Positions 4,517 through 35,016 of a stretch of DNA of 35,198 bases are shown piece by piece. The stretch is from Candidatus Sherwoodlollariibacterium unditelluris. Lineage in GTDB: Bacteria; Omnitrophota; Gorgyraeia; Gygaellales; Profunditerraquicolaceae. A program made the position numbers and the translations under genes. Numbering within the stretch: position 1 is the first letter of the stretch; every line of letters starts with the position of its first letter. Below the pieces are notes generated by a model, which was not told the DNA's origin, made no database searches, and saw only the letters and a program-made list of their open reading frames with translations. The stretch is taken from NCBI GenBank assembly GCA_002771995.1, contig PCRK01000167.1, positions 1-35,198 on the forward strand, in the 5' to 3' direction.

Positions 4517-5474
4517 CGATATCGCAGTAAGGGTTGAGAAATTAGAAAAGAAGTTTGGAGATTTTACAGCGGTTGACCGGATTAGTTTTGAAGTTAAGAA
4601 AGGCGAGATATTCGGTTTCTTAGGCCCTAACGGCGCAGGAAAATCCACGACCATAAGAATGCTCTGCGGAATTCTGACGCCTACATCCGGAATCGGGAAT
4701 GTGAGCGGTTATGATATTAACCGCCAGCAGGAATTAATAAAACAGAATATCGGTTATATGTCTCAGAAATTTTCCTTATATGAAGACTTAACTGTGGAAG
4801 AAAATATCGATTTTTACAGCGGTATTTACAAAGTTCCGAAAAAAGTAAGGAAGGCTCGCGAAGACTGGATTATCAAGATGGCAGGGATTGAGGCATTCAG
4901 GTCGCATTTAACAGGCACTCTGTCAGGAGGGTGGAAGCAGAGGCTGGCATTGGGATGCGCGCTAATTCATGAACCCAAAATAATTTTTTTAGATGAGCCT
5001 ACCTCGGGTATAGATCCTATTGCCAGGAATAATTTCTGGAAGCTGATAAAAGAAATGGCAAAACAAGGTGTTACTGTATTTGTCACCACGCATTATATGG
5101 ATGAGGCCCAGAATTGCGATCGCCTCGCGTTTATTTATAGAGGGGATATTATTGCGATAGGAACTCCGGAAGGTTTAAAAGCAGAGTGCATGAAAGAGGA
5201 TGTTTTGAGAATATCCGTGCCCAACCCTGAAGAATGGATTGAAAAATTAGAGAAGTTAGAATCCGTAAAAGAGGTGGCGCTCTTCGGCACTGTTTTACAT
5301 GGGATTGTAAAGGATGGGCGCCAAGCAACGCCGGCCATTACCAAATTATTTGCCCAGGAGGGAATTAAAGATTATTCAATAGAGAAAATCAAGGCGTCTT
5401 TAGAGGATGTTTTTGTTTCCCTTATTGAATTTTACGATGAGGCAGGAGGGTTCTGTGGACTCCGCCCCTCCTAA
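4497..5474 (+). CDS. ABC transporter ATP-binding protein (ABC-2 type, YbhF C-half-like, with C-terminal accessory domain)
   Basis: Walker A GPNGAGKST, signature LSGGWKQRL, Walker B IIFLDEPTSGID, H-loop TTHYMDE. It overlaps the preceding ATPase gene by 20 nt. Confidence 0.9.
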   Translation: MNMNPNNDIAVRVEKLEKKFGDFTAVDRISFEVKKGEIFGFLGPNGAGKSTTIRMLCGILTPTSGIGNVSGYDINRQQELIKQNIGYMSQKFSLYEDLTVEENIDFYSGIYKVPKKVRKAREDWIIKMAGIEAFRSHLTGTLSGGWKQRLALGCALIHEPKIIFLDEPTSGIDPIARNNFWKLIKEMAKQGVTVFVTTHYMDEAQNCDRLAFIYRGDIIAIGTPEGLKAECMKEDVLRISVPNPEEWIEKLEKLESVKEVALFGTVLHGIVKDGRQATPAITKLFAQEGIKDYSIEKIKASLEDVFVSLIEFYDEAGGFCGLRPS

Positions 5475-5570
5475 AATGAATTATCGATATTTTGTAAAAA
5501 ATGTAAAAAATGAATTGATTTGTATTAGATATATAACTTATTTAATTTTAATAACAGGAGGGGCGGGGTG
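5459..5570 (+). repeat. Junction palindrome, CCTCC variant: the 5' arm covers the ATPase stop and the 3' arm carries the SD + GTG of the permease
   Basis: ccgcccctcct (5462-5472; stop taa at 5472-5474) is the exact complement of aggaggggcgg (5556-5566). Pairing extends with one G-U to include GTG 5568. The AT-rich ~80-nt loop holds duplicated aaatgaatt and tgtaaaaaa, plus tttgtattaga, which also occurs in the 34231 element. Confidence 0.7.
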
Positions 5571-6698
5571 AACCTGAAAAGAGTTAGCGCCATAACCAAA
5601 AAAGAATTCATCCAGATAGTGCGCGATTACAGAAGCTTAGGGCTGGCAATTTTTAATCCCATTCTTTTACTTTGCCTGTTCGGTTTTGCCCTCTCTCTCG
5701 ATGTTAATAATGTCCCCTTAGTTATTTGGAACCAGGATAAATCGCAGGCCTCCACTGATTTTGTCATGAATTTCAAAAATTCGCAATACTTTAAAATCGT
5801 AGGTTTTCTCGATAACTATACACAACTGCAGAATTATATCGATAGAAGAAAAGCGCTTATGGCCATGGTGATACCGAAGGATTTCTCGAAATATATCCAG
5901 TCGAATCAACCGGCTCCGGTGCAGCTGTTAGTTGACGGAAGCGATTCTAACACTGCAACCATTGCCATGGGATACGTTAACTCCGTTGTAGCAAAATACA
6001 ACGTAAAATTTATCGAGGATTCCATATCAAAATTAGGTATTAACAATCTTTCACCCATAGATTTAAAACCAAGGGTTTGGTTCAACGAAGATTTAAAAAG
6101 CAAGAATTATGTTATTCCTGGCCTGATCGCCGTGATTATGATGATGATTGCTGCCCAGCTTACCTCTATAACAGTAGCCAGGGAATGGGAAAGAGGCACA
6201 ATGGAACAGTTGATTTCGACACCTATCAGGCGGGGAGAGCTTATCTTGGGTAAATTCATACCATATTTTGTGATTGGATTCTTTGATCTGTTGGTTGCTG
6301 TTACAATGGCGCAGTTTGTTTTTACGGTTCCTTTAAGGGGCAGTTTAATCTTGCTGCTTATTTTGAGCAGCATTTTTCTTGCTGGGGCATTGGCGCAGGG
6401 GTTGTATTTTTCAATTTTCGCTAAAAATCAACGCCTGGCAACGCAGCTGACACTTCTTACCACATTCCTGCCGACTTTCATGCTTTCCGGATTTGTCTAT
6501 CCAATTTATAATATGCCCAAAGTTATACAGCTAATCACCTATGTGTTTCCTGCGCGTTATTTTATTACCATACTTAAAGGAATTTATTTAAAAGGCGATG
6601 GATTGAATATCTTGTGGTTACAAGTATTGTTTTTATCACTGTTTGCGTTTATGATGATGTTTTTTGCCTATCGGCGATTTAAAAAAAAGGTTACCTGA
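5568..6698 (+). CDS. ABC-2 family transporter permease (YbhS/YbhR-like)
   Basis: GTG start preceded by an aggagggg SD. One TM, a large external loop and five further TMs. ABC-2 motif AREWERGTMEQLISTPI. Confidence 0.85.
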   Translation: MNLKRVSAITKKEFIQIVRDYRSLGLAIFNPILLLCLFGFALSLDVNNVPLVIWNQDKSQASTDFVMNFKNSQYFKIVGFLDNYTQLQNYIDRRKALMAMVIPKDFSKYIQSNQPAPVQLLVDGSDSNTATIAMGYVNSVVAKYNVKFIEDSISKLGINNLSPIDLKPRVWFNEDLKSKNYVIPGLIAVIMMMIAAQLTSITVAREWERGTMEQLISTPIRRGELILGKFIPYFVIGFFDLLVAVTMAQFVFTVPLRGSLILLLILSSIFLAGALAQGLYFSIFAKNQRLATQLTLLTTFLPTFMLSGFVYPIYNMPKVIQLITYVFPARYFITILKGIYLKGDGLNILWLQVLFLSLFAFMMMFFAYRRFKKKVT

Positions 6699-8393: not shown

Positions 8394-10439
<2,046 letters not shown>

Positions 10440-10531
10440 ACTGGCAAACTGTTAAACTGTCATATGGTTAAATTGTTTTTAAACAGTTTAGCAATTTAGC
10501 AGTTTAACAATAAATCTATGGGAGAATTTAT

Positions 10532-11026: not shown

Positions 11027-11640
11027 TTTTAGAGACAGTTCTTGTAGGGCCGATGGGAGTTAATTGCTATGTTTTGGCGTCCAAAGAAGGTTCCCGGGCT
11101 ATAATTATTGACCCTGGTGATGAGGGGCGTAAAATTCGGCAGGTATTAGATAGGCATAACTTAGAGCCGGGTTTTATTATCAATACCCACGGCCATTATG
11201 ACCATATCGGAGCGGATAATAAGTTTGACGTAGCAGTCTATGTGCATAAGCTTGATGCACCTCTATTAAAAGAACCGATGCTTAACCTCTCCGGTTTATT
11301 TTCTTTGCCTTATGTGGTTAAGTCCAAGATAAAGTTTTTAGAAGACGGCGAGATTATTACGTTAGACGATATCAGGCTAAGGGTAATACATACGCCGGGG
11401 CATACCCCGGGAGGAATTACTTTATTGTTAGAGAAGCCGGTAGATAAAATTGCCTTTACCGGGGATACATTATTTTGTTCTGGAATGGGCCGTTTTGATT
11501 TGGCTGGTGGTAATGAAAAGTTGTTAATTAAATCCATACGGGAAAGGCTCTTTACCTTGCCGCTTGAAACTAGAATTTATCCCGGGCACGGCCCTGCTTC
11601 TACAATAGGAGAAGAGAAGAAGAACCCCGCACCTTTATAG
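11023..11640 (+). CDS. MBL-fold metallo-hydrolase (hydroxyacylglutathione-hydrolase-like)
   Basis: HxHxDH motif THGHYDHIG, later HTPGHTPG and GDTLF...GR.D. Its ATG overlaps the upstream stop (ATGA). Confidence 0.85.
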   Translation: MILETVLVGPMGVNCYVLASKEGSRAIIIDPGDEGRKIRQVLDRHNLEPGFIINTHGHYDHIGADNKFDVAVYVHKLDAPLLKEPMLNLSGLFSLPYVVKSKIKFLEDGEIITLDDIRLRVIHTPGHTPGGITLLLEKPVDKIAFTGDTLFCSGMGRFDLAGGNEKLLIKSIRERLFTLPLETRIYPGHGPASTIGEEKKNPAPL

Positions 11641-11741
11641 ATATTCAAGGAAATAAAAAGATGAATATGCCAAAGGTGCGGGATTCAAGTAGTTTAAAAG
11701 GCATTAGATTTAAAAAGATGAATATTCTAGAAGGTGCGGGA
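11625..11741 (+). repeat. Junction palindrome with a duplicated 3' arm (MBL hydrolase | xerD)
   Basis: cccgcaccttt (11626-11636, just before stop 11638-11640) pairs with aaaggtgcggg (11672-11682). The inner hairpin is atattca (11641-11647) / tgaatat (11662-11668). A second 3' arm, aaaaagatgaatattctagaaggtgcggg (11712-11740), lies 57 nt after the first copy (11655-11682) and abuts ATG 11741. Confidence 0.75.
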
Positions 11742-12628
11742 TGAAAGAGCTAATTGATACATTTCTTAATTATCTTTCGGTTGAGCGCGGGTTATCCAAT
11801 AATACGATTATCGCTTACCGTGAAGATTTAAATAAGTATTTAGATTTTATGGAAAAGAACCATATTGAAGTTTTATCCAAAATCGCCAAAGATAATATTA
11901 CAGATTTTATGCTTAGCCAAAGAGATGATGGAATTGCCCCTAATTCCGTAGCCAGAAGATTGGCGGCGATAAGGATGTTCCACAGGTTTCTAGCCCGCGA
12001 GAGAATCCTGAAAACTGATCCCAGCACTTTAATAGACTCTCCTAAATTATGGAAGAGGGTCCCTGATACCCTTACGGTAAATGAGGTCGAGGCTTTAATC
12101 GTCCAGCCGGATGCGCGGGATAGGCAAGGGATAAGAGACCGGGCAATATTAGAGACGCTTTATGCTACAGGTATGCGTGTATCCGAGGCAGTGAACTTAA
12201 AAAAAGATAATGTAAATTTAGATATCGGTTTCTTGCGTTGTGTTGGCAAGGGGAATAAAGAGAGGATTATACCCTTAGGCAAGAAGGCGATAGTCAGCAT
12301 AACCAGGTATTTTAAGGCCTCAAGGCCTAAGTTTCTTAAAGATAAGCAATCGGAGTTTCTCTTTGTTAGCCGTTTTGGGAAAAAAATTTCACGGCAATCT
12401 TTCTGGAAGCTCATTAAGAAATATGCAAAACTGGCGCGTATTAAGAAACCGATTAAGCCGCATACCTTTAGGCATTCTTTTGCCACGCATCTTTTAGAGC
12501 GTGGAGCGGATTTGCGTTCCGTCCAAGAGATGCTTGGGCATGCGGATATCTCTACAACTCAGATTTATACGCATATCAATAAAGATAGATTGAAAAGTGT
12601 TCATAAGCAGTTTCATCCAAGGCCGTAA
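11741..12628 (+). CDS. xerD: Tyrosine site-specific recombinase XerD (XerC/XerD family)
   Basis: N-terminal SAM-like domain (FLNYLSVERGLSNNTIIAYREDL). Catalytic region RDRAILETLYATGMRVSE ... HTFRHSFATHLLERGADLRSVQEMLGHADISTTQIYTH (R-H-R-Y residues). Confidence 0.8.
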   Translation: MKELIDTFLNYLSVERGLSNNTIIAYREDLNKYLDFMEKNHIEVLSKIAKDNITDFMLSQRDDGIAPNSVARRLAAIRMFHRFLARERILKTDPSTLIDSPKLWKRVPDTLTVNEVEALIVQPDARDRQGIRDRAILETLYATGMRVSEAVNLKKDNVNLDIGFLRCVGKGNKERIIPLGKKAIVSITRYFKASRPKFLKDKQSEFLFVSRFGKKISRQSFWKLIKKYAKLARIKKPIKPHTFRHSFATHLLERGADLRSVQEMLGHADISTTQIYTHINKDRLKSVHKQFHPRP

Positions 12629-14021: not shown

Positions 14022-14426
14022 ATGTCAAGACAGGATAAGGTAGGGGAGGCAATCAGGCAGGAAGCGAGCATTATAATACATGATAAGTTAAAAGATCCGC
14101 GCTTAGGATTTATAACCATTACTCGTGTCGAGATGACCCATGACTTAAGGTTCGCTAAAATATTTTTTAGCGTATTGGGTAATGAAGAGGCTTATAAAAA
14201 GACTAAGGAAGCCTTGAATTCCTCTATGGGGTTTGTGCGTAGATTAGTCGCCCGGAGGTTGAATTTAAGGTTTGCTCCGGAGATCGCCTTTTACGAGGAC
14301 AGGTCTACTGAGTATAGCGTGCACATTGAAGAGATTTTAAATAAAATAAAAGAGTCTGATAAATCTTGCCCTTCCCCTAATGAAGCGGCCGGAGGGGACG
14401 GAAATGAGAAAGAAGGCGCGGGGTAA
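14022..14426 (+). CDS. rbfA: Ribosome-binding factor A
   Basis: RbfA core RVGEAIRQEASIIIHDKLKDPRLGFITITRVEMTHDLRFAKIFFSV. The Gly/Glu-rich C-terminal tail is encoded by a junction repeat. Confidence 0.9.
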   Translation: MSRQDKVGEAIRQEASIIIHDKLKDPRLGFITITRVEMTHDLRFAKIFFSVLGNEEAYKKTKEALNSSMGFVRRLVARRLNLRFAPEIAFYEDRSTEYSVHIEEILNKIKESDKSCPSPNEAAGGDGNEKEGAG

Positions 14427-14448
14427 ATATGAAAGAAGGTGCGGGGTG
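14404..14448 (+). repeat. Two tandem 3'-arm units of the junction repeat (rbfA | nrnA)
   Basis: atgagaaagaaggcgcggggt (14404-14424, ending in the rbfA stop) is followed by atgaaagaaggtgcggggtg (14429-14448, ending in GTG 14446). No matching 5' arm is nearby. Confidence 0.7.
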
Positions 14449-15459
14449 GACAAGGCAAGCCTAAAAAAAGTTGTCGCAGCAATAAAAAGGTATAAGCGCT
14501 TCTTAATTACAACACATACTTCTCCTGAGGGCGATGCAATTGGTTCGGAATTAGCGTTTTATCATCTCTTAAGGAAACTCGGTAAAACCGCAGTTGTTAT
14601 CAACGAAAGCCATTTTCCTGCAGAGCTTAATTTTCTTCCCGGGAAAGAAAGGATAGTAGTTTATAAGCCCAATCTTAAGAAGATTGGTTTTGACTGTATG
14701 GTTGTCTTAGATTGTTCTGATTTGAATCGCGCGGGCCAGGTGTGTAAGTTAAACAAAGGTAATAAGCCCGTAATAAATATAGACCACCATATAAGTAACA
14801 ATAATTTTGGCATTGTGAATTTGGTTGATGCTGGGGCATCTTCTGCCTCTGAAGTGGTTTATAGCCTATATAAAGAGATGCGCGTGCCTTTTGATAAAGA
14901 TTCAGCGCTGGTTTTGTATGTTGGTATGATGACTGACACCGGTTCATTCCGTTATTCCAATACCTCGGGTTTTACTCATAAGGCGGTAGGGGAGTTGATG
15001 CGTTTTGGTTTTGATGTTCGCAGGACCTATAGTAATATTTATGAGAGTATCCCGTTCGCGGGTACACAATTATTAATTAAAATCCTTTCCAATGTTCATC
15101 TTACGGCCAAAGGCAGAATTGCCTGGGTTGAGGTTCCGGCTAAATCCTTAAGGCATAAAAAACTATCTTTTGACCTCTCAGAGCAGATTTTAAGTTTTAT
15201 CCGGGTAATAAAAGATACGCAGGTTGTGGCGCTTTTCAGGGAGAACCTGGGTGCTAAAAAAGAAATCCACTTTAATTTAAGGTCTAACGGCATAGTTGAT
15301 GTAAATAAAATTGCTCAAGTATTTGGCGGCGGAGGGCATAAAAGCGCCTCCGGCTGCACCATGGCTGGTAAGCTTTCTGAAGTGCGCCGCAAAGTCATCG
15401 CCAATATCCGTCACAATCTAAAATACCTTACCGCAATCGCACCGCGGGGGTGCGAATAG
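14446..15459 (+). CDS. nrnA: DHH/DHHA1 phosphoesterase, NrnA-like oligoribonuclease / pAp phosphatase
   Basis: DHH-family motifs: TTHTSPEGDAIGS, VVLDCSD, NIDHHISN, MTDTGSFRY. DHHA1 motif GGGGHKSASG. I prefer GTG 14446 (agaaggtg SD, N-terminus MDKASLKKVVAAIKRYKRFLI) over the ORF-track ATG 14380, which overlaps rbfA by 47 nt. Confidence 0.85.
   Translation: MDKASLKKVVAAIKRYKRFLITTHTSPEGDAIGSELAFYHLLRKLGKTAVVINESHFPAELNFLPGKERIVVYKPNLKKIGFDCMVVLDCSDLNRAGQVCKLNKGNKPVINIDHHISNNNFGIVNLVDAGASSASEVVYSLYKEMRVPFDKDSALVLYVGMMTDTGSFRYSNTSGFTHKAVGELMRFGFDVRRTYSNIYESIPFAGTQLLIKILSNVHLTAKGRIAWVEVPAKSLRHKKLSFDLSEQILSFIRVIKDTQVVALFRENLGAKKEIHFNLRSNGIVDVNKIAQVFGGGGHKSASGCTMAGKLSEVRRKVIANIRHNLKYLTAIAPRGCE
15438..15454 (+). 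repeat. Minimal cgcacc/ggtgcg hairpin at the nrnA 3' end
   Basis: cgcacc (15438-15443), loop gcggg, ggtgcg (15449-15454), 3 nt before stop 15457-15459. It has the same arm core as the larger junction palindromes. Confidence 0.6.
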
Positions 15460-16432: not shown

Positions 16433-16519
16433 ATCAGTAAAAACACCACAATAGCTGGTAATTTCAAGCCAGGATATCCACTACTCCTTGTTTTATAACA
16501 AGTTAGGTAAATTTTCCTC

Positions 16520-16548
16520 TTGACAAAAGGGAGTATTTTATCTATACT
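16520..16548 (+). promoter_or_regulatory. Near-consensus sigma70-type promoter of the dcw operon (Pmra)
   Basis: TTGACA (16520-16525), a 17-nt spacer, then TATACT (16543-16548). It lies about 165 nt upstream of mraZ. Confidence 0.7.
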
Positions 16549-16556
16549 TGGGCTAC

Positions 16557-16583
16557 TGAGTGGATGAAAGTGGGGTAAAGTGG
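16557..16583 (+). promoter_or_regulatory. Candidate MraZ operator: three direct repeats at exact 10-bp spacing
   Basis: tGAGTGG (16557-16563), AAAGTGG (16567-16573) and AAAGTGG (16577-16583) lie immediately downstream of the -10. A possible fourth unit is TTGGG at 16548-16552. Confidence 0.6.
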
Positions 16584-16620
16584 TTGAGGCCGTAAGGCCG
16601 AAACCACCCCGCACCTTTTT
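16570..16620 (+). terminator. Terminator-like composite hairpin with a U-tract in the mraZ leader
   Basis: gtgggg-taaa-gtggtt-ga-ggcc-gtaa-ggcc-ga-aaccac-ccc-g-cac followed by cttttt (16615-16620). The 5' strand is made of the MraZ-box repeats. Confidence 0.5.
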
Positions 16621-16668
16621 AGTATTCAAGTATTTTTATTTAAAACGTGAATAAATAAAAGGTGCGGG
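16607..16668 (+). repeat. Junction-type palindrome inside the mraZ leader
   Basis: cccgcacctttt (16608-16619) pairs with aaaaggtgcggg (16657-16668), 12 bp. The inner hairpin is tattca (16623-16628) / tgaata (16648-16653). The architecture matches 11625-11682. Confidence 0.75.
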
Positions 16669-16706
16669 ATAAATTCGCACAGACAAAGAAGAATAACGAG
16701 GAGATT

Positions 16707-16735
16707 GATACTTGACAGAAAAAATGTCAAGTATC
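16707..16735 (+). promoter_or_regulatory. Perfect 11-bp inverted repeat enclosing the mraZ TTG start
   Basis: gatacttgaca (16707-16717), loop gaaaaaa, tgtcaagtatc (16725-16735). It begins 4 nt after the gaggag SD (16698-16703). Confidence 0.55.
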
Positions 16736-17185
16736 AAGTGTTCATTTATGTTCTATGGCGAGTATCTGCACTCTATAGACCGGAAAGGCCGCCTGATATT
16801 ACCTGCCAAATTTCGTGAGGTTGCCAAAGCGTATTTCATTGAAAAATTCTTTATAACCCGTGGTTTGGATACCTGTCTTTTTATGTTCAGTGAAGAGGAA
16901 TGGAAAGCGCAGGAAGGCAAATTTAAGGCTATTTCTTTCACTAAGGCGGAATCGCGTAAATTTAACCGCCTTTATTTTTCCGGGGCCGTGGAGATAAATG
17001 TTGATACGCAGGGAAGAATCCTCTTGCCGCAATATTTAAAGGATTTCGCCCAGATTAAGAAGGATGTGGTTATCATCGGTGTTTCTAACAGGATTGAAAT
17101 CTGGGCTAAGGATAAATGGACTGAGTTTTACGAAAATTCTAAGCAATCCTTTGAAGAGATTGCCGAGAAACTGATGGATGCCTAA
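16712..17185 (+). CDS. mraZ: Transcriptional regulator MraZ
   Basis: Two SpoVT/AbrB-like halves: MFYGEYLHSIDRKGRLILPAKFRE and VDTQGRILLPQYLKDF. TTG 16712 has a gaggag SD 8 nt upstream. Homolog-like N-termini would start at ATG 16748, which has no SD. Confidence 0.85.
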   Translation: MTEKMSSIKCSFMFYGEYLHSIDRKGRLILPAKFREVAKAYFIEKFFITRGLDTCLFMFSEEEWKAQEGKFKAISFTKAESRKFNRLYFSGAVEINVDTQGRILLPQYLKDFAQIKKDVVIIGVSNRIEIWAKDKWTEFYENSKQSFEEIAEKLMDA

Positions 17186-29646: not shown

Positions 29647-30499
29647 AACTAATCAGCCGTTAAAGGCCAAAACCACCCTTAAGATCGGAGGGCCGGCTGA
29701 ATTTTTTAGCGAACCTAAAGGCCTTGCGGAATTAAAACTTCTTATTAATAAGGCCAAAGAAAATAACCTGCCTGTTTCTGTTATTGGGGCAGGCAGTAAT
29801 TTGCTGATTAGCGGCCGAGGAGTTAAAGGTCTTTTAATAAAATTAAACTCCCCTTATTTTAAAAAAATTTCATTAAAAGATAATTATATTGAGGCAGGTA
29901 GCGGCGCTATGCTGCTTAAGCTTATTCAATTCGCCAAAAGGAGGCCTTTGAGCGGAATTGAATTCTTGGCGGGTATACCCGGAACACTAGGCGGGGCATT
30001 AGCGATGAATGCCGGTTGTTGGGGTAAGAATATCGGGGATTTGGTTAAGGAAGTAAAGGTTATGGATTATAAAGGTAGTGTAAGGAAATTAACCAAGCGG
30101 GAAATAAAGTTTAGTTACCGTAAATCCGGCCTGGGAAATTATATTATATTAAGCGCGGTATTAAAACTTAAGAAAGAAAGTGCTAAGGTAATCAACCGGA
30201 ATATAAAAGATTATATTTTGAAGCGGCGCAATAGCCAAGATTTGACTTTTCCCAATGCCGGGTGTATCTTTAAGAATCCCGCTTCTTTATCCCGAGGCGC
30301 GGGTGAGTTGATAGAGCTTTGTGGGTTAAAAGGCAGGAGAATCGGGGGTGCGTCTATTTCTATTAAACACGCCAATTTTATCCTAAACAAAGGAAATGCT
30401 AATGCTGAAGATGTGCTAAGGCTTATGCGTTTAGTAAGGGAAAGGGTAAAGAAGAAATTTAAGGTAACTTTAGAACCGGAAATAAAAATATGGCAATAA
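29618..30499 (+). CDS. murB: UDP-N-acetylenolpyruvoylglucosamine reductase
   Basis: FAD-binding motifs TLKIGGPAEFF and GAGSNLL, and catalytic-region GCIFKNP. The last 16 codons lie in the left 67-bp direct repeat. Confidence 0.9.
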   Translation: MSWQKELRVKTNQPLKAKTTLKIGGPAEFFSEPKGLAELKLLINKAKENNLPVSVIGAGSNLLISGRGVKGLLIKLNSPYFKKISLKDNYIEAGSGAMLLKLIQFAKRRPLSGIEFLAGIPGTLGGALAMNAGCWGKNIGDLVKEVKVMDYKGSVRKLTKREIKFSYRKSGLGNYIILSAVLKLKKESAKVINRNIKDYILKRRNSQDLTFPNAGCIFKNPASLSRGAGELIELCGLKGRRIGGASISIKHANFILNKGNANAEDVLRLMRLVRERVKKKFKVTLEPEIKIWQ

Positions 30500-30516
30500 A
30501 CTCGCGAACTTGTGAA
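30450..30516 (+). repeat. Left 67-bp direct repeat (murB 3' end + orphaned ddl-type start)
   Basis: Identical to 30930-30996 except c30494 versus g30974. The offset is exactly 480 bp. Confidence 0.95.
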
Positions 30517-30929
30517 TTTAGAGCACGATATATTTTGTTCTTCGGGATATTGCTCGCTTACTGAAATCTCTCACCGTTCTTTTTAATGAATCTGTCGTGT
30601 TTTTCGCTTAAGTCGCTTTTGCCCTTACGGGCACAGCAAAGGTCTCTCGTATTTTTGGCGGCTGCAGAACTCGGCCGTCCCGCTCTAGCGGAGACGGCCT
30701 CAAACAGCTTCGCCGTCCCGAGATTGCCCCGACGATATGTCGGGGCCTCGGGATTCCCAAAAATACTCGAGCTGCTTTGCCTAAAAGCTCCATTCGCTCG
30801 AAATCACGCCAGATTCATTTAGCGAAGCAGCTTTATCTTATAAATGACACTGGTAAGGTTCGAGCGAATGTCGTACTTTTCGCCTCTGCGAAAAGCACGG
30901 CCTGAGCGAGAAACTTGGCAGGGTCATTT
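30517..30929. other. GC-rich, highly self-complementary non-coding insert (candidate structured RNA, or relic of an integrative or MITE-like element)
   Basis: It is bounded by the 67-bp direct repeats and visibly more GC-rich than its flanks. The only ORFs are mutually overlapping Arg/Ala/Pro/Leu-rich ones on both strands. Many nested complementary segments are listed in the findings. Confidence 0.5.
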
Positions 30930-30996
30930 AGAAGAAATTTAAGGTAACTTTAGAACCGGAAATAAAAATATGGGAATAAACTCGCGAACTTGTGAA
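30930..30996 (+). repeat. Right 67-bp direct repeat (pseudo murB 3' end + functional ddl start)
   Basis: See 30450-30516. It contains ATG 30970, which ddl uses. Confidence 0.95.
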
Positions 30997-31941
30997 CTCG
31001 CGAACTCGCGAACTAACTTTGGCAGGATTGGCGTTTTAATGGGCGGCCCTTCAAGCGAAAAGAAGATTTCGCTTAAGTCAGGCCATGCTGTCTTAAATAT
31101 TTTAAAAGAGTCAGGGCAAAAAGTTGTCCCCATAATTATTAAGACAGATAAGGTTAAAAACAATGTCCGTTTGCTTAAGTCCTCGAATATAGATTGCGCC
31201 TTTATTGCTTTGCACGGCTCATTTGGCGAGGACGGCGGGATTCAGAAGATTTTAGAGTCGCTCAAGGTTCCTTACACTGGTTCGGGGGTTAGAGCAAGTA
31301 AGTTAGCCATGGATAAGGTTGCCTCGCGCAATATTTTTAAAAAGCACGGTTTAAATGTGCCGCCCTCTAAAGTAATTAGCGAGAATTCTTATAAAATTGG
31401 CAATATCGACAAATTTGGTTTGCCGTTAGTAGTTAAACCGGCTACGCAGGGCTCAAGTATTGGGCTTTCTATTGTGGATAGTTATAAAAATATCCCTAAG
31501 GCAATAAACCTGGCTTTTAAATTTGACAAGAGGATAATTATTGAAGAATACATTAGAGGCAGGGAATTGACAGTGGGGATACTCAAAGAAAAGGCGCTTC
31601 CGGTAATTGAGATTATCCCTAAGCATTTTTTCTTTGATTATCAGGCTAAATATAAACAGGGCTTAACAGATTATATTGTTCCGGCTAAGCTGTCGTTTAA
31701 GGCCGCTCTACGGATAAAGAAAGCAGCTTTGTCAGCGCATAAGCTCTTAGGCTGCTTTGGTTGTTCTAGGGTGGATATTATATTAGATGACGCGGGTAAT
31801 CCTTTTATCCTTGAGGTAAACACAATACCCGGATTTACCTCAACTAGCCTCTTGCCTAAAGCAGCGAAAAGCGCGGGGATAGATTTTAATCATTTGTGCC
31901 TGGAATTAATCAAGTTGGCATATGGGCCTCGCACCTTCTAA
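30970..31941 (+). CDS. ddl: D-alanine--D-alanine ligase
   Basis: GVLMGGPSSEKKISLKSG, HGSFGEDGGIQ, ATP-grasp VKPATQGSSIG, LEVNTIPG. The N-terminal 17 aa (MGINSRTCELANSRTNF) are encoded by the right direct repeat plus an 8-nt tandem array. No alternative in-frame start exists before the conserved core. Confidence 0.9.
   Translation: MGINSRTCELANSRTNFGRIGVLMGGPSSEKKISLKSGHAVLNILKESGQKVVPIIIKTDKVKNNVRLLKSSNIDCAFIALHGSFGEDGGIQKILESLKVPYTGSGVRASKLAMDKVASRNIFKKHGLNVPPSKVISENSYKIGNIDKFGLPLVVKPATQGSSIGLSIVDSYKNIPKAINLAFKFDKRIIIEEYIRGRELTVGILKEKALPVIEIIPKHFFFDYQAKYKQGLTDYIVPAKLSFKAALRIKKAALSAHKLLGCFGCSRVDIILDDAGNPFILEVNTIPGFTSTSLLPKAAKSAGIDFNHLCLELIKLAYGPRTF
30981..31017 (+). repeat. 8-nt-period tandem array (GAACTNNN x4) in the ddl 5' end
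   Basis: GAACT occurs at 30986, 30994, 31002 and 31010 (cgaacttgtgaactcgcgaactcgcgaacta). It encodes ...RTCELANSRT. Confidence 0.85.
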
Positions 31942-32003
31942 AATATTCATAGTTAAATATTTTAGAGGTGTGAGGGTAATGAATTAAAAGAAGGTGCGGG
32001 GTG
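31927..32003 (+). repeat. Junction palindrome (ddl | ftsQ), the archetype: 5' arm over the ddl stop, 3' arm = SD + GTG of ftsQ
   Basis: cctcgcaccttct (31927-31939; stop 31939-31941) pairs over 13 bp, one of them G-U, with agaaggtgcgggg (31989-32001; GTG at 32001). The inner pair is attcat (31945-31950) / atgaat (31979-31984). A degenerate extra 3' arm, atattttagaggtgtgaggg, lies at 31957-31976. Confidence 0.75.
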
Positions 32004-32783
32004 AGAAAACGCAAGTTTGATTTTTTGGTTAAGCCGTTGTTTTTAAGTTTAATAATTCTTCTTGTCTCGGCTTTTATTATAGGTTCGATTTGGGAGGCCC
32101 TAACTACTTCGGATTATTTTAAGGTCAATGATATTATCAGCAAAGATATGTTAAGCGTCGATCTTTCGTATCTAAGGGGAAGGAATATATTCACCCTTAA
32201 TTTACCCGGCGAATCAGCGACGATTATAAAAGTTTGCCCGGACTGCCTAAGGGTAAGATTGGCCAGGGTTTTTCCTGACCGCGTATTCGTGGAATTCGTA
32301 AGGCGTAAGCCCGTAGCCTCAGTAAAGCTTTATCGTTATTTTTCCGTGGACCAAGACGGGGTATTTTTCTCTAGTTCTTTAGGGCCGCAGGATTCAGGCC
32401 TGCCGTTGATTATAGGATTAGAAACGAGGATATTTGGGATAAAGCCGGGAAAGAGGTGTGATGCCAAAGAGCTGGTTTTGGCTTTAGATATTATTAAAGA
32501 GGTAAAGAAAACCCGCCTATTGAGAGATTTTAAGATACAGAAGATTGAAGTGGCTGGAGCGAACGACATAACAATATCTATACCTCTTATCCCTAAATCT
32601 TTTAGTTATTCTAACGGTCAGGCTGCTTTGAAACAAGAATTTCTTGAGGTAAAGATATCTCAGGGTAATATAGCAGAAAAGATTGCGGTTATGGCCGGTT
32701 TAATAAATCAGGAAAGGCAGAATCTTAGCAATATTAAATACATAGATTTAAGGTTTAAGGAGCCGGTAATAAAGTTTAAGTGA
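32001..32783 (+). CDS. ftsQ: Cell division protein FtsQ (POTRA domain)
   Basis: Short cytoplasmic tail, one TM (LFLSLIILLVSAFIIGSIW), then POTRA-like and FtsQ-type beta domains. It sits between ddl and ftsA. The GTG start is embedded in a junction repeat. Confidence 0.8.
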   Translation: MRKRKFDFLVKPLFLSLIILLVSAFIIGSIWEALTTSDYFKVNDIISKDMLSVDLSYLRGRNIFTLNLPGESATIIKVCPDCLRVRLARVFPDRVFVEFVRRKPVASVKLYRYFSVDQDGVFFSSSLGPQDSGLPLIIGLETRIFGIKPGKRCDAKELVLALDIIKEVKKTRLLRDFKIQKIEVAGANDITISIPLIPKSFSYSNGQAALKQEFLEVKISQGNIAEKIAVMAGLINQERQNLSNIKYIDLRFKEPVIKFK

Positions 32784-32883
32784 GGCCACGGCTTATGGAG
32801 CGCTTAGCGAACATAAGCCGTTTGGCCGAACTTACCCCCGCTGTTTCGTTTTGCTTTCGCAAAGCGAAACAAAACGACGGGGG
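32784..32883 (+). other. Two long GC-rich hairpins in the ftsQ-ftsA spacer
   Basis: The first is ggccacggcttatg (32784-32797) / cataagccgtttggcc (32812-32827), 14 bp with a 2-nt bulge. The second spans 32835-32883, about 20 bp, imperfect, with outer ccccc/ggggg and a gcttt-cgc-aaagc tip. Confidence 0.7.
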
Positions 32884-32942
32884 TTAATTCGCACAATAGC
32901 TTACTCACACTTTTAGTGTTCGTAAGTTATGGGCTCATTAAG

Positions 32943-34196
32943 ATGTTAAATAATTATATCTGCGCGCTGGATATTGGTTCTAGTAAAATCGCCGTAGTTT
33001 TAGCCCGGATTAAGAAAAATAGGCTTGTGAATCTCTATTTTGATTCTTTACCCATAAAAGGGGTTAGGGAAGGGGCAATCATAGATTCTATAGGGCTTAT
33101 CGGTTCGGTAGGTAAAATCCTTAAAGCCTTAAAGGCAAAGTCCGGGGTGAATATTAAATTTGTTTCAGTAAATATCTCCGGCCAGGATATAATTACTAAA
33201 CATAGCCACGCAATCATCCCCCTTGCCGAAAGAGGGAATAAGGTCATAAGCGTATCCGATATGCAACGGGCAACGGAACAGGCGCGCGTACTCGGGTCAA
33301 GCCTTGAAGATGAGATAATTCACATGTTCCCAACGGGCTATTCCATAGATTCCAAGAATAATATATTGAATCCTCTGGGGCTCTATAGCCATAGGTTAGA
33401 GGTGGATTTATACCTTGTTTGCGCTAAGTTATCTTCGGTCGAGAGTTTAAGCCGGGTGATTAATCAATCAGGATACGAAATCAAGAATTTATTCTTTTCA
33501 GGGATAGCTACCAGTAAGGCAGTGTTTAGTTCGGGGTTTAAGGAGGGTTTTAATTTATTATGCGATTTAGGAAGTGATACCACGGAACTCTTAATTTTTA
33601 AAGACGGTTTGCTTAATGACATACAGATTTTGCCTTTTGGCGGTAATGATTTAACGCAAAAACTTTCGGATAATTTAAAGATTCCCCTTGATTTGGCCGA
33701 GGCGATAAAGTGCTCATATGGTTTTATCGGCAATCCCTCTGAAGTGGCGGAAGATAAGGAGATTTTAGTTAAAAAGAACGAATTTTATAAGCCGATAAAG
33801 CAAAGGCTTGTCGCGGAAATTATTACAGCTTCGGCTAGGGAAATATGTTCTAAAATAAAAAGTGCCGCAGAGAAAAAAGTCGCGTTTCATAAGTTGAGTA
33901 ATTTTGTTGTTGTGGGTAGAACAATACTATTAGAGGGATTTATTGAGACTTTAGAAAATACCTTAAATGCCCCGGTTAAACTCGGCCGGCTTACTAACTT
34001 AGAGATAATTTCTTTAATCAAAGAGAATAGTGAGTTATCGGGACAAAAATACCTTAATTACCTTACTTGTTTAGGAATGATTTGTGAAGCATTAGAGAAT
34101 AAACCCTTAGGGATTTTGCCTCTACGCCAGCCTGCTAAAAACCTCGTTTTAAAGCTTATAAACAGGGTCAAGGAAGTATATCAGGAATACTTTTAA
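32943..34196 (+). CDS. ftsA: Cell division protein FtsA (actin-like ATPase)
   Basis: Phosphate-1 motif CALDIGSSKIAV, phosphate-2-like CDLGSDTTELLIF, and a C-terminal amphipathic tail. ATG 32943 gives the homolog-like N-terminus. The ORF-track GTG 32916 lies inside a hairpin. Confidence 0.85.
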   Translation: MLNNYICALDIGSSKIAVVLARIKKNRLVNLYFDSLPIKGVREGAIIDSIGLIGSVGKILKALKAKSGVNIKFVSVNISGQDIITKHSHAIIPLAERGNKVISVSDMQRATEQARVLGSSLEDEIIHMFPTGYSIDSKNNILNPLGLYSHRLEVDLYLVCAKLSSVESLSRVINQSGYEIKNLFFSGIATSKAVFSSGFKEGFNLLCDLGSDTTELLIFKDGLLNDIQILPFGGNDLTQKLSDNLKIPLDLAEAIKCSYGFIGNPSEVAEDKEILVKKNEFYKPIKQRLVAEIITASAREICSKIKSAAEKKVAFHKLSNFVVVGRTILLEGFIETLENTLNAPVKLGRLTNLEIISLIKENSELSGQKYLNYLTCLGMICEALENKPLGILPLRQPAKNLVLKLINRVKEVYQEYF

Positions 34197-34230
34197 TGAC
34201 GGCACAACGTGCCTCACTTACTTTCTATTG

Positions 34231-34286
34231 ACCCCGCACCTTCTTTGTATTAGAATGAACTAATTAAATTGAAGAAGGTGCGGGGT
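34231..34286 (+). repeat. Junction palindrome (ftsA | yggS), perfect 15-bp arms
   Basis: accccgcaccttctt (34231-34245) is the exact complement of aagaaggtgcggggt (34272-34286). The 26-nt AT-rich loop contains tttgtattaga. Confidence 0.8.
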
Positions 34287-34313
34287 TGACCCGTTTCTAT
34301 TCTGTTGTATAAT
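34286..34313 (+). promoter_or_regulatory. Candidate promoter giving a leaderless or near-leaderless yggS mRNA
   Basis: TTGACC (34286-34291), a 16-nt spacer, then TATAAT (34308-34313). Only 7 nt (atttgca) and no SD lie before ATG 34321. Confidence 0.55.
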
Positions 34314-34320
34314 ATTTGCA

Positions 34321-35016
34321 ATGATTAAAGATAATATCGTCAAGATTAAGGGACGGGTTGCTCTAGTCTGTTCTAAAATTAATAGGGATCTTTCCGGTAT
34401 TAAAATAGTTGCCGTAAGCAAAGGCAGGGGCATTGAAGATATAAAAGAGGCAATTGCCTGCGGCATAACTGACATCGGCGAAAACCGGGTCCAAGAAGCA
34501 ATTACTAAGTATAACGAATTACGAACCGGCGAACTGGCGAACCGGCGAACCATAGAATGGCATATGATCGGACATCTGCAAACGAATAAAGTAAAGGACG
34601 CGGTAGGGGTTTTTGATTTGATCCATTCTGTCGATAGTTTAGCTTTAGCGCGGGAAATCGATAAGCGGGCAGCTCGAATAAATAAAATTCAAGATATACT
34701 GATTGAGATAAAAACTTCGCGGGAAGCTACAAAATTTGGGTTAAATTCGGATAAAGCCTCGGAGGTTATTCAGGGTATATCTCAACTTCAGAATATCAAT
34801 ATAAAAGGATTGATGACCATTGCTCCGGTAGTTGAAAACCCTGAAGGCGCACGGCCTTATTTTAGAATGCTAAAAGAACTTAGAGACAGAATTAACAATA
34901 TGCAATTAGCTATATGCCATATGCGATATCTGTCCATGGGCATGACTGATGATTTTGAGGTAGCCATAGAAGAAGGCGCGGATATGATTAGAATCGGCAG
35001 GGCTATTTTTGATTAG
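34321..35016 (+). CDS. yggS: YggS/YlmE-family pyridoxal-phosphate homeostasis protein
   Basis: VAVSKGR (PLP lysine), GENRVQE, WHMIGHLQTNKVK, LSMGMTDDFEVAIEEGADMIRIGRAIF. Confidence 0.9.
   Translation: MIKDNIVKIKGRVALVCSKINRDLSGIKIVAVSKGRGIEDIKEAIACGITDIGENRVQEAITKYNELRTGELANRRTIEWHMIGHLQTNKVKDAVGVFDLIHSVDSLALAREIDKRAARINKIQDILIEIKTSREATKFGLNSDKASEVIQGISQLQNINIKGLMTIAPVVENPEGARPYFRMLKELRDRINNMQLAICHMRYLSMGMTDDFEVAIEEGADMIRIGRAIFD
34516..34559 (+). repeat. 8-nt-period tandem array (GAACYGGC-type) inside yggS
   Basis: GAACC/GAACT occur at 34523, 34531, 34539 and 34547, with GAATG at 34555 (cgaaccggcgaactggcgaaccggcgaacc). It encodes ...RTGELANRRT. Confidence 0.85.

Follow-up and report, generated by a model that had tools for sequence, protein, structure and literature searches.

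Palindromes at gene junctions of a groundwater Omnitrophota bacterium: probable non-autonomous copies of a mobile element with a GIY-YIG nuclease gene

Introduction

Several gene junctions in a 35.2-kb stretch of DNA from Candidatus Sherwoodlollariibacterium unditelluris, a groundwater bacterium of the phylum Omnitrophota (contig PCRK01000167.1, positions 1–35,198; hereafter the window), hold palindromes of one family, the right-hand arm of which can end in the start codon of the next gene. Do these palindromes belong to the junctions, as devices that regulate translation, or did they arrive there from elsewhere? An earlier interpretation made from the letters alone (the sequence-only reading) had leaned toward a module that hides the downstream ribosome-binding site (RBS) until a ribosome terminates on the left arm. 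As a fallback, it had named an origin like that of repetitive extragenic palindromic (REP) sequences or miniature inverted-repeat transposable elements (MITEs). It is the fallback that the present analysis bears out, by empty sites, direct repeats, hundreds of copies in three phyla, and versions containing a GIY-YIG gene. Sequence comparison indicates that these palindromes are genuine copies of a small mobile element that occurs in Omnitrophota, Planctomycetota, and bacteria of the candidate phyla radiation (CPR, Patescibacteria). It demonstrated their insertion, flanking direct repeats, high copy number, ends in common with GIY-YIG elements, and the rebuilding of a Shine-Dalgarno sequence (SD) plus start codon. 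They are probably non-autonomous, MITE-like copies of an element whose full form of ∼330 bp carries a GIY-YIG nuclease gene.

Results

A family of palindromes in the window

The arm AAGGTGCGGG, with at most one mismatch, occurred 13 times in the window compared with 1.85 occurrences expected, and none of 100 shuffled sequences reached 13. Five full palindromes (L1, L2, L5, L6, and L7) and one locus consisting of arms only (L3) were found, with ends of the form (C/T)CCCGCACCTTyT / ArAAGGTGCGGG(G/A):

L1, 5455..5572, + strand: variant arms, between the genes for an ABC ATPase and an ABC-2 permease; 5′ arm CTCCGCCCCTCCT (5460-5472), AT-rich loop, 3′ arm AGGAGGGGCGGGG (5556-5568); flanks TGGA (5456-5459) and TGAA (5569-5572); ATPase stop TAA at 5472-5474; permease GTG (5568) begins with the last G of the 3′ arm.
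L2, 11621..11745, + strand: composite, between the gene for a hydrolase of the metallo-β-lactamase (MBL) fold and xerD; 5′ arm CCCCGCACCTTTA (11625-11637); hydrolase stop TAG at 11638-11640; first 3′ arm at 11671-11683, second 3′ arm AGAAGGTGCGGGA (11729-11741) followed by TGAA (11742-11745), each preceded by AAAAAGATGAATAT; xerD ATG (11741) begins with the last A of the second 3′ arm.
L3, 14411..14450, + strand: two tandem right-hand ends with no 5′ arm; AGAAGGCGCGGGG (14411-14423), read by rbfA as its terminal ...KEGAG, and AGAAGGTGCGGGG (14434-14446); nrnA GTG (14446) begins with the last G of the second right arm.
L5, 16599..16677, + strand: in the 5′ untranslated region (UTR) of mraZ, downstream of a TTGACA/TATACT promoter and conserved GTGG repeats; 5′ arm CCCCGCACCTTTT (16607-16619), 3′ arm AAAAGGTGCGGGA (16657-16669); inner TATTCA/TGAATA pair; outer extension CGAAAcCAC...ATAAATTCG; no start-codon fusion.
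L6, 31922..32005, + strand: between ddl and ftsQ, with the old ftsQ ATG at 31922; 5′ arm CCTCGCACCTTCT (31927-31939); ddl stop TAA at 31939-31941; internal degenerate copy of the 3′ arm, AGAGGTGTGAGGG (31964-31976); 3′ arm AGAAGGTGCGGGG (31989-32001); flanks TGGG (31923-31926) and TGAG (32002-32005); ftsQ GTG (32001) begins with the last G of the 3′ arm.
L7, 34228..34289, + strand: perfect palindrome between ftsA and a yggS-like gene; arms CCCCGCACCTTCT (34232-34244) and AGAAGGTGCGGGG (34273-34285); flanks TTGA (34228-34231) and TTGA (34286-34289), the latter lying in the −35 box TTGACC (34286-34291) of a promoter-like site, whose TATAAT (34308-34313) ends 7 nt before ATG 34321.
15438-15454, + strand: CGCACC gcggg GGTGCG, a stem of 7 bp only; doubtful and not counted as a member.

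The sequence-only reading had listed at least seven loci, of which 15438-15454 is dropped. That stem lies in an 11-codon C-terminal extension of nrnA (YLTAIAPRGCE and stop; 15420-15459), which arose by loss of a stop codon: relatives stop after ...NLK or ...NLE, where the window reads TAC. The claim that the 3′ arm ends in the downstream start codon was correct for the permease gene (5568), xerD (11741), nrnA (14446), and ftsQ (32001), where the final base of the arm doubles as the first of the start codon, but not for L5 and L7, which are not fused to one. The starts of xerD, nrnA, and ftsQ at the arm end agree with the N-termini of homologues in relatives (that of nrnA fits their M-x-K-x-x-L-K-K-V-A), which upholds the description of the 3′ arm as SD plus start codon. 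The upstream gene had likewise been read correctly: in L1, L2, and L6, its stop lies at the inner edge of the left arm, which yields the tails ...GLRPS, ...NPAPL, and ...GPRTF; these and the APRGCE end of nrnA are all as the sequence-only reading gave them.

Direct repeats flank L7 (TTGA/TTGA), L1 (TGGA/TGAA), and L6 (TGGG/TGAG). The arms of L1 depart from the main family at two positions, each altered on both sides and so compensated, and the same variant arms recur, fused to a start codon, in another Omnitrophota genome (locus L016).

The junction palindromes are insertions

A search with Ddl returned ten metagenome loci, nine of them at 58–73% identity. In all nine, ddl and ftsQ overlap and are free of the palindrome, the ATG of ftsQ lying inside GCTTATGAAAAG; the junction reads ...GCT TAT GAA AAG..., and ddl continues to ...AYEKTQR before its stop. 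The window, in contrast, reads GCATATG, then the element from GGCCTCGCACCTTCT to AGAAGGTGCGGGG, and then TGAGAAAACGC. L6 therefore sits exactly on the start codon of ftsQ, and from this alignment it is concluded that it replaced the tail of ddl and gave ftsQ a new SD and a GTG start. Similarly, a relative (L127) has TTGAAC-N16-TATAAT-ATG straight after the ftsA stop, with no element, whereas the window reads TTGAC, element, TTGAC-N16-TATAAT; the −35 box was therefore duplicated on either side of L7. In three further relatives, with NrnA 72–80% identical to that of the window, the MBL hydrolase gene and xerD overlap at ATGA without an element, and their rbfA/nrnA junctions have a native SD of their own. 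Promoter and operator repeats of the mraZ leader align in all four genomes, and ∼165 nt including L5 are present in the window only.

Presence/absence polymorphism, one of the marks by which MITEs are recognized, was thus found for four window loci, each being empty in relatives. None of the 13 related loci (10 Ddl-based and 3 NrnA-based) contained clean arms. Metagenome contigs contained a near-identical copy of L6 with other flanks, further copies, and sites that lack a different insertion, but L6 itself showed no polymorphism there; six contigs with identical XerD were at least 99.98% identical to the window and, hence, uninformative on strain variation. Together, these alignments demonstrate that the junction palindromes are insertions and not native junctions.

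Two of the affected sites contain promoter-like sequences. A near-consensus promoter for the yggS-like gene (TTGACC-N16-TATAAT, 34286-34323) has its −10 box ending 7 nt before the ATG; the mRNA is therefore probably leaderless or nearly so. The 5′ copy of TTGACC together with a TAGAAT within L7 forms a second promoter-like site (34228-34256; 10 of 12 matches), directed into the element. The mraZ promoter (TTGACA-N17-TATACT, within 16519-16747) and the repeats GAGTGGATGAAAGTGGGGTAAAGTGG downstream of it are shared by all relatives; these repeats are probably the operators for MraZ. A different, window-specific palindrome, GATACTTGACAGAAAAAATGTCAAGTATC (∼16704-16732), lies directly before the real mraZ ATG (∼16748), for which ORF listers give TTG 16712.

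Many copies in three phyla, often on start codons

The pattern CCCGCACCTT-N22-52-AAGGTGCGGG, with exact arms, was searched in GTDB contigs. It was present in at least 118 contigs, as opposed to ∼33 by chance (our own estimate, assuming uniform base composition). Among the matches listed, 39 were from Omnitrophota, 24 from Planctomycetota, 32 from Patescibacteria/CPR, and 23 from other or unnamed contigs, which assigns 95 of the at least 118 to the three groups; several such contigs in one metagenome-assembled genome (MAG) were common. Arm variants in the family include CCCGCACC, CCCACACC, CCCTCACC, and CCGCCCC. Only 7 matches to the arms were found in viral contigs, which therefore provide no link to phages. 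Matches in Pedobacter/Bacteroidota (L025, L030, and L115) are tandem GGTAAGGTGCGGGT-type units beside CCCGCACCTTACCC; they look like a different repeat family that has the core in common by chance or through distant relation.

The copies are built as short, non-coding elements with terminal inverted repeats of 13–15 nt. The base outside the core covaries between the two ends (C-G in 57 copies and T-A in 37), and the next base is A or T in 91 of 124 copies. In a set of 70 distinct arm pairs, pairing covers 95.7% of positions, and 10 of 13 pairs are changed on both sides, figures biased upward since the arms were picked as best partners.

A perfect direct repeat of four bases, as left by target-site duplication, flanked 47 of the 124 copies compared with 6.4 in shuffles (maximum 15). 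These repeats fit TNNA (TGAA/TTCA, TTTA/TAAA, and TTGA/TCAA), in Omnitrophota mostly the TGAA of an RTGAA start; flanks extended as inverted repeats in only 3 of 124 copies. Within a genome, the orientation of the loop is fixed relative to the asymmetric flanking tetranucleotide.

Fusion to a start codon extends well beyond the window. When open reading frames (ORFs) from 90 codons upward were counted (range 90–880), 28 copies with exact arms, and 43 with relaxed arms, had an ORF starting precisely at the base that follows GGTGCGGG; RTGA was read in 27 of the 28. The products are housekeeping proteins with canonical N-termini, for example alanyl-tRNA synthetase (twice), L18, L15, PanC, PheT, RadA, GlgA, and TsaB (genes alaS, rplR, rplO, panC, pheT, radA, and glgA among others). 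The 5′ flank of these copies is usually ATGAAY or ATGAT, that is, a second copy of the start codon, which opens a mini-ORF (MNPAPS...). Start fusion is, as judged from these contigs, a general property of the Omnitrophota and Planctomycetota copies. It may reflect a preferred target, the survival of harmless insertions only, or both.

In one Omnitrophota contig (L011:3582-4549), two elements 900 nt apart sit on the starts of rplR and rplO within a ribosomal-protein operon, so that even essential genes with very high expression tolerate the element.

The same ends bracket a GIY-YIG nuclease gene

Arm-bracketed spans of 150–5000 nt with matching ends and direct repeats were scanned for longer elements. 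Most candidates were merely neighboring short copies and were discarded; only those with a GIY-YIG gene proved real. Eight loci, which represent six distinct sites, carry a gene for a single-domain GIY-YIG protein of ∼85 amino acids between these same ends and direct repeats:

L123 (Saccharibacteria): ORF between two arms, with a GIY-YIG domain (Pfam PF01541, E = 6.7e-13).
L098: C-CCCGCACCTTTT ... ATG ... TGA-AAAGGTGCGGG-G, direct repeat TTTTGA.
L063: arms CCCACACC / GGTGTGGG, direct repeat TATA.
L112: SR1 genome, GIY-YIG gene between arms.
L145-149: direct repeat CATGAA, itself the start of the following gene.
L150/151: in a MAG that also carries the short copies L026, L060, and L101.

This full-length form measures ∼330 bp, and its arm variants change in step with the nuclease. 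Given that the same ends surround a GIY-YIG gene, the short palindromes look like MITE-type derivatives of a GIY-YIG element. The nuclease itself had only weak matches in the PDB (Slx1/UPF0213) and sub-threshold matches in NCBIfam. A GIY-YIG profile search gave 7550 proteins at E up to 1e-6; among the best 120, those with a name were nearly all from Patescibacteria.

Copies within pilin genes of CPR bacteria

In Saccharibacteria, the copies lie in type-IV-pilin-like genes (Pfam N_methyl) as in-frame insertions of 66–69 nt. The right arm plus repeat reads AAA GGT GCG GGG TTT ACA (K G A G | F T), and the left flank GGG TTT AC retains the original G|FT; in-frame insertion with a KGAG|FT right end therefore regenerates the prepilin cleavage site.

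At L123:2336-2642, a GIY-YIG domain is fused in frame, via the right end, to a type-IV-pilin-like protein (..KKKKGEG|FTLTEILIV), and a second pilin gene 900 nt downstream (L123:3530-3600) contains a short in-frame copy. If the prepilin peptidase cut the fusion, the nuclease would come off as a “leader peptide.”

Hairpins, frames, and rebuilt translation starts

As + strand RNA, the window palindromes were predicted to fold with −29.5 to −37 kcal/mol (z-scores −4.8 to −9.5), with perfect stems of 19 bp in L7 and 14 bp in L6; L5 was computed to fold better on the minus strand. Insertion at A|TGAA gives a right end of AGAAGGTGCGGG-R-TGAA, which comprises an SD (AAGGTG), a 4-nt spacer, and a rebuilt RTG start for the gene that was interrupted. 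An upstream frame that enters the element closes directly behind the left arm (..CC TTC TAA), within the loop, or at RTGA. Because the element closes the incoming frame and supplies an SD and a start, gene pairs that once overlapped remain intact. At the level of sequence, these junctions bear out that the 3′ arm provides the SD and start codon of the next gene, and that the upstream gene takes its tail and stop from the 5′ arm.

Small open frames are present in three of the copies in the window. In L1, a frame of 38 codons from GTG 5455 to TGA 5569-5571 is open through the whole element, including its 83-nt AT-rich loop; L2 holds an open frame of 42 codons that ends ...LEGAG at ATGA; and in L6, 21 codons from the old ftsQ ATG (31922-31987) encode MGLAPSKIFIVKYFRGVRVMN and stop 13 nt before the new GTG. 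The frame ending at the TGA of RTGA is open through the entire element in 12 of 27 copies, compared with 3.9 expected from loop shuffles, although copies share ancestry, so that neither these counts nor those on arm pairing are independent events.

Discussion

Regulation, mobility, or mRNA fate

A hairpin in the mRNA (∼−30 kcal/mol) would bury the SD and start codon, and coupling to upstream translation is plausible; the frame that remains open to RTGA, in 12 of 27 copies and in L1 and L2 of the window, gives it indirect support. A rival view is that the palindromes are a non-mobile regulatory module evolved by the host, an RBS-sequestering hairpin or translational switch placed by selection for coupling or stoichiometry. 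In L1, L2, and L6, the upstream stop falls on the inner margin of the 5′ arm, which would fit such a module, as would the frame that is open to RTGA more often than by chance and the internal degenerate 3′ arm of L6 and many Omnitrophota copies, which permits alternative pairing. Yet close relatives do without the element, their junctions working by simple overlap, and the same ends occur in non-translational settings, in the UTR of mraZ (L5), upstream of a promoter (L7), and inside CPR pilin ORFs. Copies are moreover flanked by direct repeats, and some carry a GIY-YIG gene. An additional argument for function at the mRNA level, that two mismatched positions are G-U pairs only in the sense RNA, did not hold: both pairs exist, but the 43 start-fused copies contain 8 G-U against 9 A-C mispairs, and a sense-strand excess is absent. 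The proposed mimicry of the anti-SD by the 5′ arm reduces to its being the complement of an SD-like 3′ arm. As the arms are also found in CPR pilin ORFs, the L5 UTR, and upstream of the L7 promoter, their complementarity is better explained as that of terminal inverted repeats. A host-made switch is thus an unlikely account.

Effects mainly on the fate of the mRNA, with the hairpins as RNase III sites, 3′ stabilizers between cistrons, or terminators, seem improbable to a slightly greater degree. Stems that are long and perfect (L7, 19 bp; L6, 14 bp) and the place of L7 at the end of the dcw operon would suit this role, and Correia elements of Neisseria have been reported as RNase III processing sites and 3′ stabilizers. 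Cutting a stem that contains the SD and start codon would, however, destroy the downstream initiation site. Nor is there a T-run after the 3′ arms, which continue GTGAAC, ATGAAA, ATAAAT, GTGAGA, and GTTGAC. An intrinsic terminator (GC-rich stem plus U-run) was rejected as a candidate on this ground; a terminator scan at L7 flagged only a weak alternative stem of 5 bp.

That the repeats are a classical REP/REPIN family moved by a RAYT, a Y1 transposase of the IS200/IS605 type, would agree with extragenic, multi-copy palindromes with hairpin-forming ends, and with the fixed orientation of the loop toward an asymmetric tetranucleotide in the flank, which single-strand transposition would be expected to produce. 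We nevertheless regard it as very improbable: a single arm is not itself palindromic, the GTAG-type 5′ tetranucleotide is absent, flanks are duplicated on both sides, and the only gene found between the ends, at six independent sites, is GIY-YIG, the loci not having been screened for Y1 transposases. According to the sequence-only reading, random placement in both orientations would have marked a plain REP element; placement is indeed strongly non-random, but the repeat is mobile all the same, so that this test does not discriminate. Ends of IS5-like insertion sequences (GGAAGGTGCG...) resemble the arm but with inverted polarity, the outer end here being CCCC, and were rejected.

Against the preferred reading, MITE-like copies of a GIY-YIG element, several observations must be set. 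Neither the window nor any Omnitrophota locus examined contained a GIY-YIG gene, and the copies in the window are tied to the nuclease by identical ends only. The nuclease gene could be a passenger; GIY-YIG nucleases are not known to be transposases or to have a strand-transfer chemistry. The direct repeats of L1 and L6 agree at only three of four positions, and L2 and L5 have none. The association with start codons could be pure survivorship. The SRM consensus of the Ssn system (see below), HGTCWYN(0-2)YYVSBRHN(0-5)WNVSBRGN(0-2)RNCYNB, had no match on either strand of the window. The shared ancestry of the copies and the selection of best-partner arms, both given above with the counts they affect, belong here as well.

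How the element would work

In the scheme that we favor, the GIY-YIG nuclease would act in trans on the hairpin in single-stranded DNA, by analogy with SsnA, and so confer mobility, host repair then copying the element. After insertion, a frame that enters the left end, whether from the upstream gene or from the left-hand start codon copy, stops after the arm, in the loop, or at RTGA. In the mRNA, the ends would pair and cover the SD and start codon until a ribosome that completes the upstream gene or the mini-ORF opens the 5′ arm and makes the site accessible. The termination-reinitiation coupling of the old overlap would in this way be replaced by a structure-dependent one.

A bolder proposal, which we put forward tentatively and with more doubt than conviction, is a novel class of bacterial transposable element that would rely on a GIY-YIG nuclease of ∼85 amino acids alone and home specifically to RTGAA starts in Omnitrophota and Planctomycetota and to G|FT cleavage codons in CPR prepilin genes. 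It would bring a built-in repair kit consisting of stops for the incoming frames, an SD, the first base of the start or a KGAG|FT end, and a mini-ORF ending at RTGA that unfolds the hairpin. If this is true, the kit would allow it to colonize essential operons (dcw and ribosomal protein genes) at almost no cost.

Relation to known systems

The closest published counterpart, as far as sequence features allow comparison, is the Ssn/SRM system (Chenal et al, 2025; PMC11893778). SsnA of Neisseria meningitidis, a GIY-YIG nuclease of 94 amino acids, cuts only single-stranded DNA next to the hairpin repeat NTS, which flanks ssnA and is present in hundreds of copies; NTS-ssnA-NTS was likened by its authors to an insertion sequence (PMC11893778). 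Both systems have a small single-domain GIY-YIG gene (85–94 amino acids) between hairpin-forming inverted repeats, multi-copy repeats mostly outside genes, repeat and nuclease variants that covary, and a CCCGC/GCGGG core, in NTS (ATTCCCGCG...CGCGGGAAT) as in the present arms (PMC11893778). A GIY-YIG gene flanked 5′ and 3′ by the repeat, as in that system, was found at L098, L063, L112, L123, L145-149, and L150/151. Unlike the self-contained hairpins of 20–50 nt in Ssn/SRM, each arm is here one half of a long-loop hairpin (22–120 nt or a whole gene); there are direct repeats of 4–6 nt and demonstrable empty sites, and the copies occupy start codons or prepilin cleavage sites, which they rebuild. 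Omnitrophota, Planctomycetota, Patescibacteria, target duplications, and start codons are not mentioned in PMC11893778. Gene exchange between Patescibacteria and Omnitrophota in groundwater has been described, with a GIY-YIG protein among the genes predicted to have been donated by Patescibacteria to other bacteria (PMC12455944).

Like the MITEs Correia/NEMIS, RUP, and Nezha, the palindromes are short, non-coding, bounded by terminal inverted repeats and target-site-like direct repeats, present in many copies with lineage-specific bursts, presumably co-transcribed with neighbors, and related to a longer element with the same ends. They differ in that the candidate autonomous partner encodes a GIY-YIG nuclease instead of a DDE transposase, that the right end consists of an SD and the first base of a start, and that insertion is concentrated on RTGAA. 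Hairpin repeats dispersed between genes, with recognition of single-stranded DNA hairpins as the likely mode, are also a trait of REP/REPIN-RAYT systems; here, the GTAG-type signature is missing and the flanks are duplicated, and no Y1 transposase turned up in loci that were not screened for one. The mycobacterial interspersed repetitive units (MIRUs) of Supply et al. (1997) are said to be intercistronic repeats in operons whose small ORFs overlap the flanking stop and start codons, which was read as preserving translational coupling. Small ORFs that overlap the neighbors' stop and start codons at intercistronic repeats are common to both, but MIRUs are tandem direct repeats with no palindrome, no sequence relation, and neither an RBS-burying hairpin nor a nuclease gene. 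Rickettsia palindromic elements (RPE; Ogata et al., 2000) are reportedly selfish palindromes tolerated inside genes via in-frame insertion. The CPR copies are likewise in frame (66–69 nt, in prepilin leaders), but sequence and hosts are different, and insertion here also regenerates a functional motif (KGAG|FT or SD plus start). Full-text searches of the literature for the arm sequence, for a MITE with SD and start codon, and for palindromic repeats of Omnitrophota returned nothing on this element.

Other features of the window

The window has a G+C content of 41%, and its large ORFs are all on the + strand. They comprise an RND/ABC export cluster, genes for an acylphosphatase, ligA, the MBL-fold hydrolase, xerD, a poly(A) polymerase/CCA-type gene, rbfA, nrnA, ribF, the dcw cluster from mraZ to ftsA, and the yggS-like gene. 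The sequence was matched in groundwater and aquifer metagenomes, all of them DNA metagenomes, and NrnA homologues at 59–80% identity carry the names Candidatus Omnitrophota/Omnitrophica. No tRNA was found in the window; Rfam 15 gave no match over its whole length at the gathering threshold and only noise for 30400-33000 at E up to 1. In the window, and also in the closest relatives (L127, L130, and L133), ftsZ does not follow ftsA. Overlapping inverted repeats of AACTGTTAAAC-like units, unrelated to the arm family, lie directly 3′ of ligA (10437-10509).

Two further inserts are specific to the window. One, of ∼425 nt (30462-30997), separates murB and ddl, which abut in relatives. On either side of it stands the overlapping murB-end/ddl-start junction, duplicated directly over 55 nt (30462-30517 and 30942-30997; two mismatches), so that both genes are intact. 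This insert folds with −181 kcal/mol (z = −9.1), has no match in Rfam, and in parts reaches 10–20 times the neighboring depth in metagenome contigs. The other, of ∼153 nt (32784-32936), lies between ftsQ and ftsA with TTAAG on its flanks and holds a different palindrome, CGAACTTACCCCCGCTGTTTCG ... CGAAACAAAACGACGGGGGTTAATTCG. Its outer motif CGAAnTTAyCCCCG / ...TTAATTCGCAC is common to L5 and a subfamily from Planctomycetota and Omnitrophota (L048, L069, and L100). Depth rises there to 99 versus ∼4 nearby, and contigs of other strains skip 161–168 nt.

What the element means for its hosts

The palindromes are, in our judgment, probably MITE-type hairpin repeats of an Ssn-like GIY-YIG element, with the unusual property of rebuilding the translation start that they interrupt. 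For genome annotation, this would have direct consequences. Gene callers misplace starts at such junctions: public calls put the nrnA start upstream of GTG 14446 and give two different mraZ starts in the window. Odd tails (PAPL, PRTF, and RPS) and mini-ORFs (MNPAPS...EGAG) would have to be read as derived from the element. The nucleases are candidates for new site-specific cutters of single-stranded DNA, and the copies would provide a natural set of hairpins, predicted to sequester the RBS, for the study of translational coupling. If the reading is true, Ssn systems extend to three poorly known phyla, with a clear insertion signature and a translational consequence, and a selfish element would be able to live within the most constrained parts of compact genomes: it would occupy the starts of genes that are essential and coupled in translation, and would itself supply the stop, SD, and start codon needed there.

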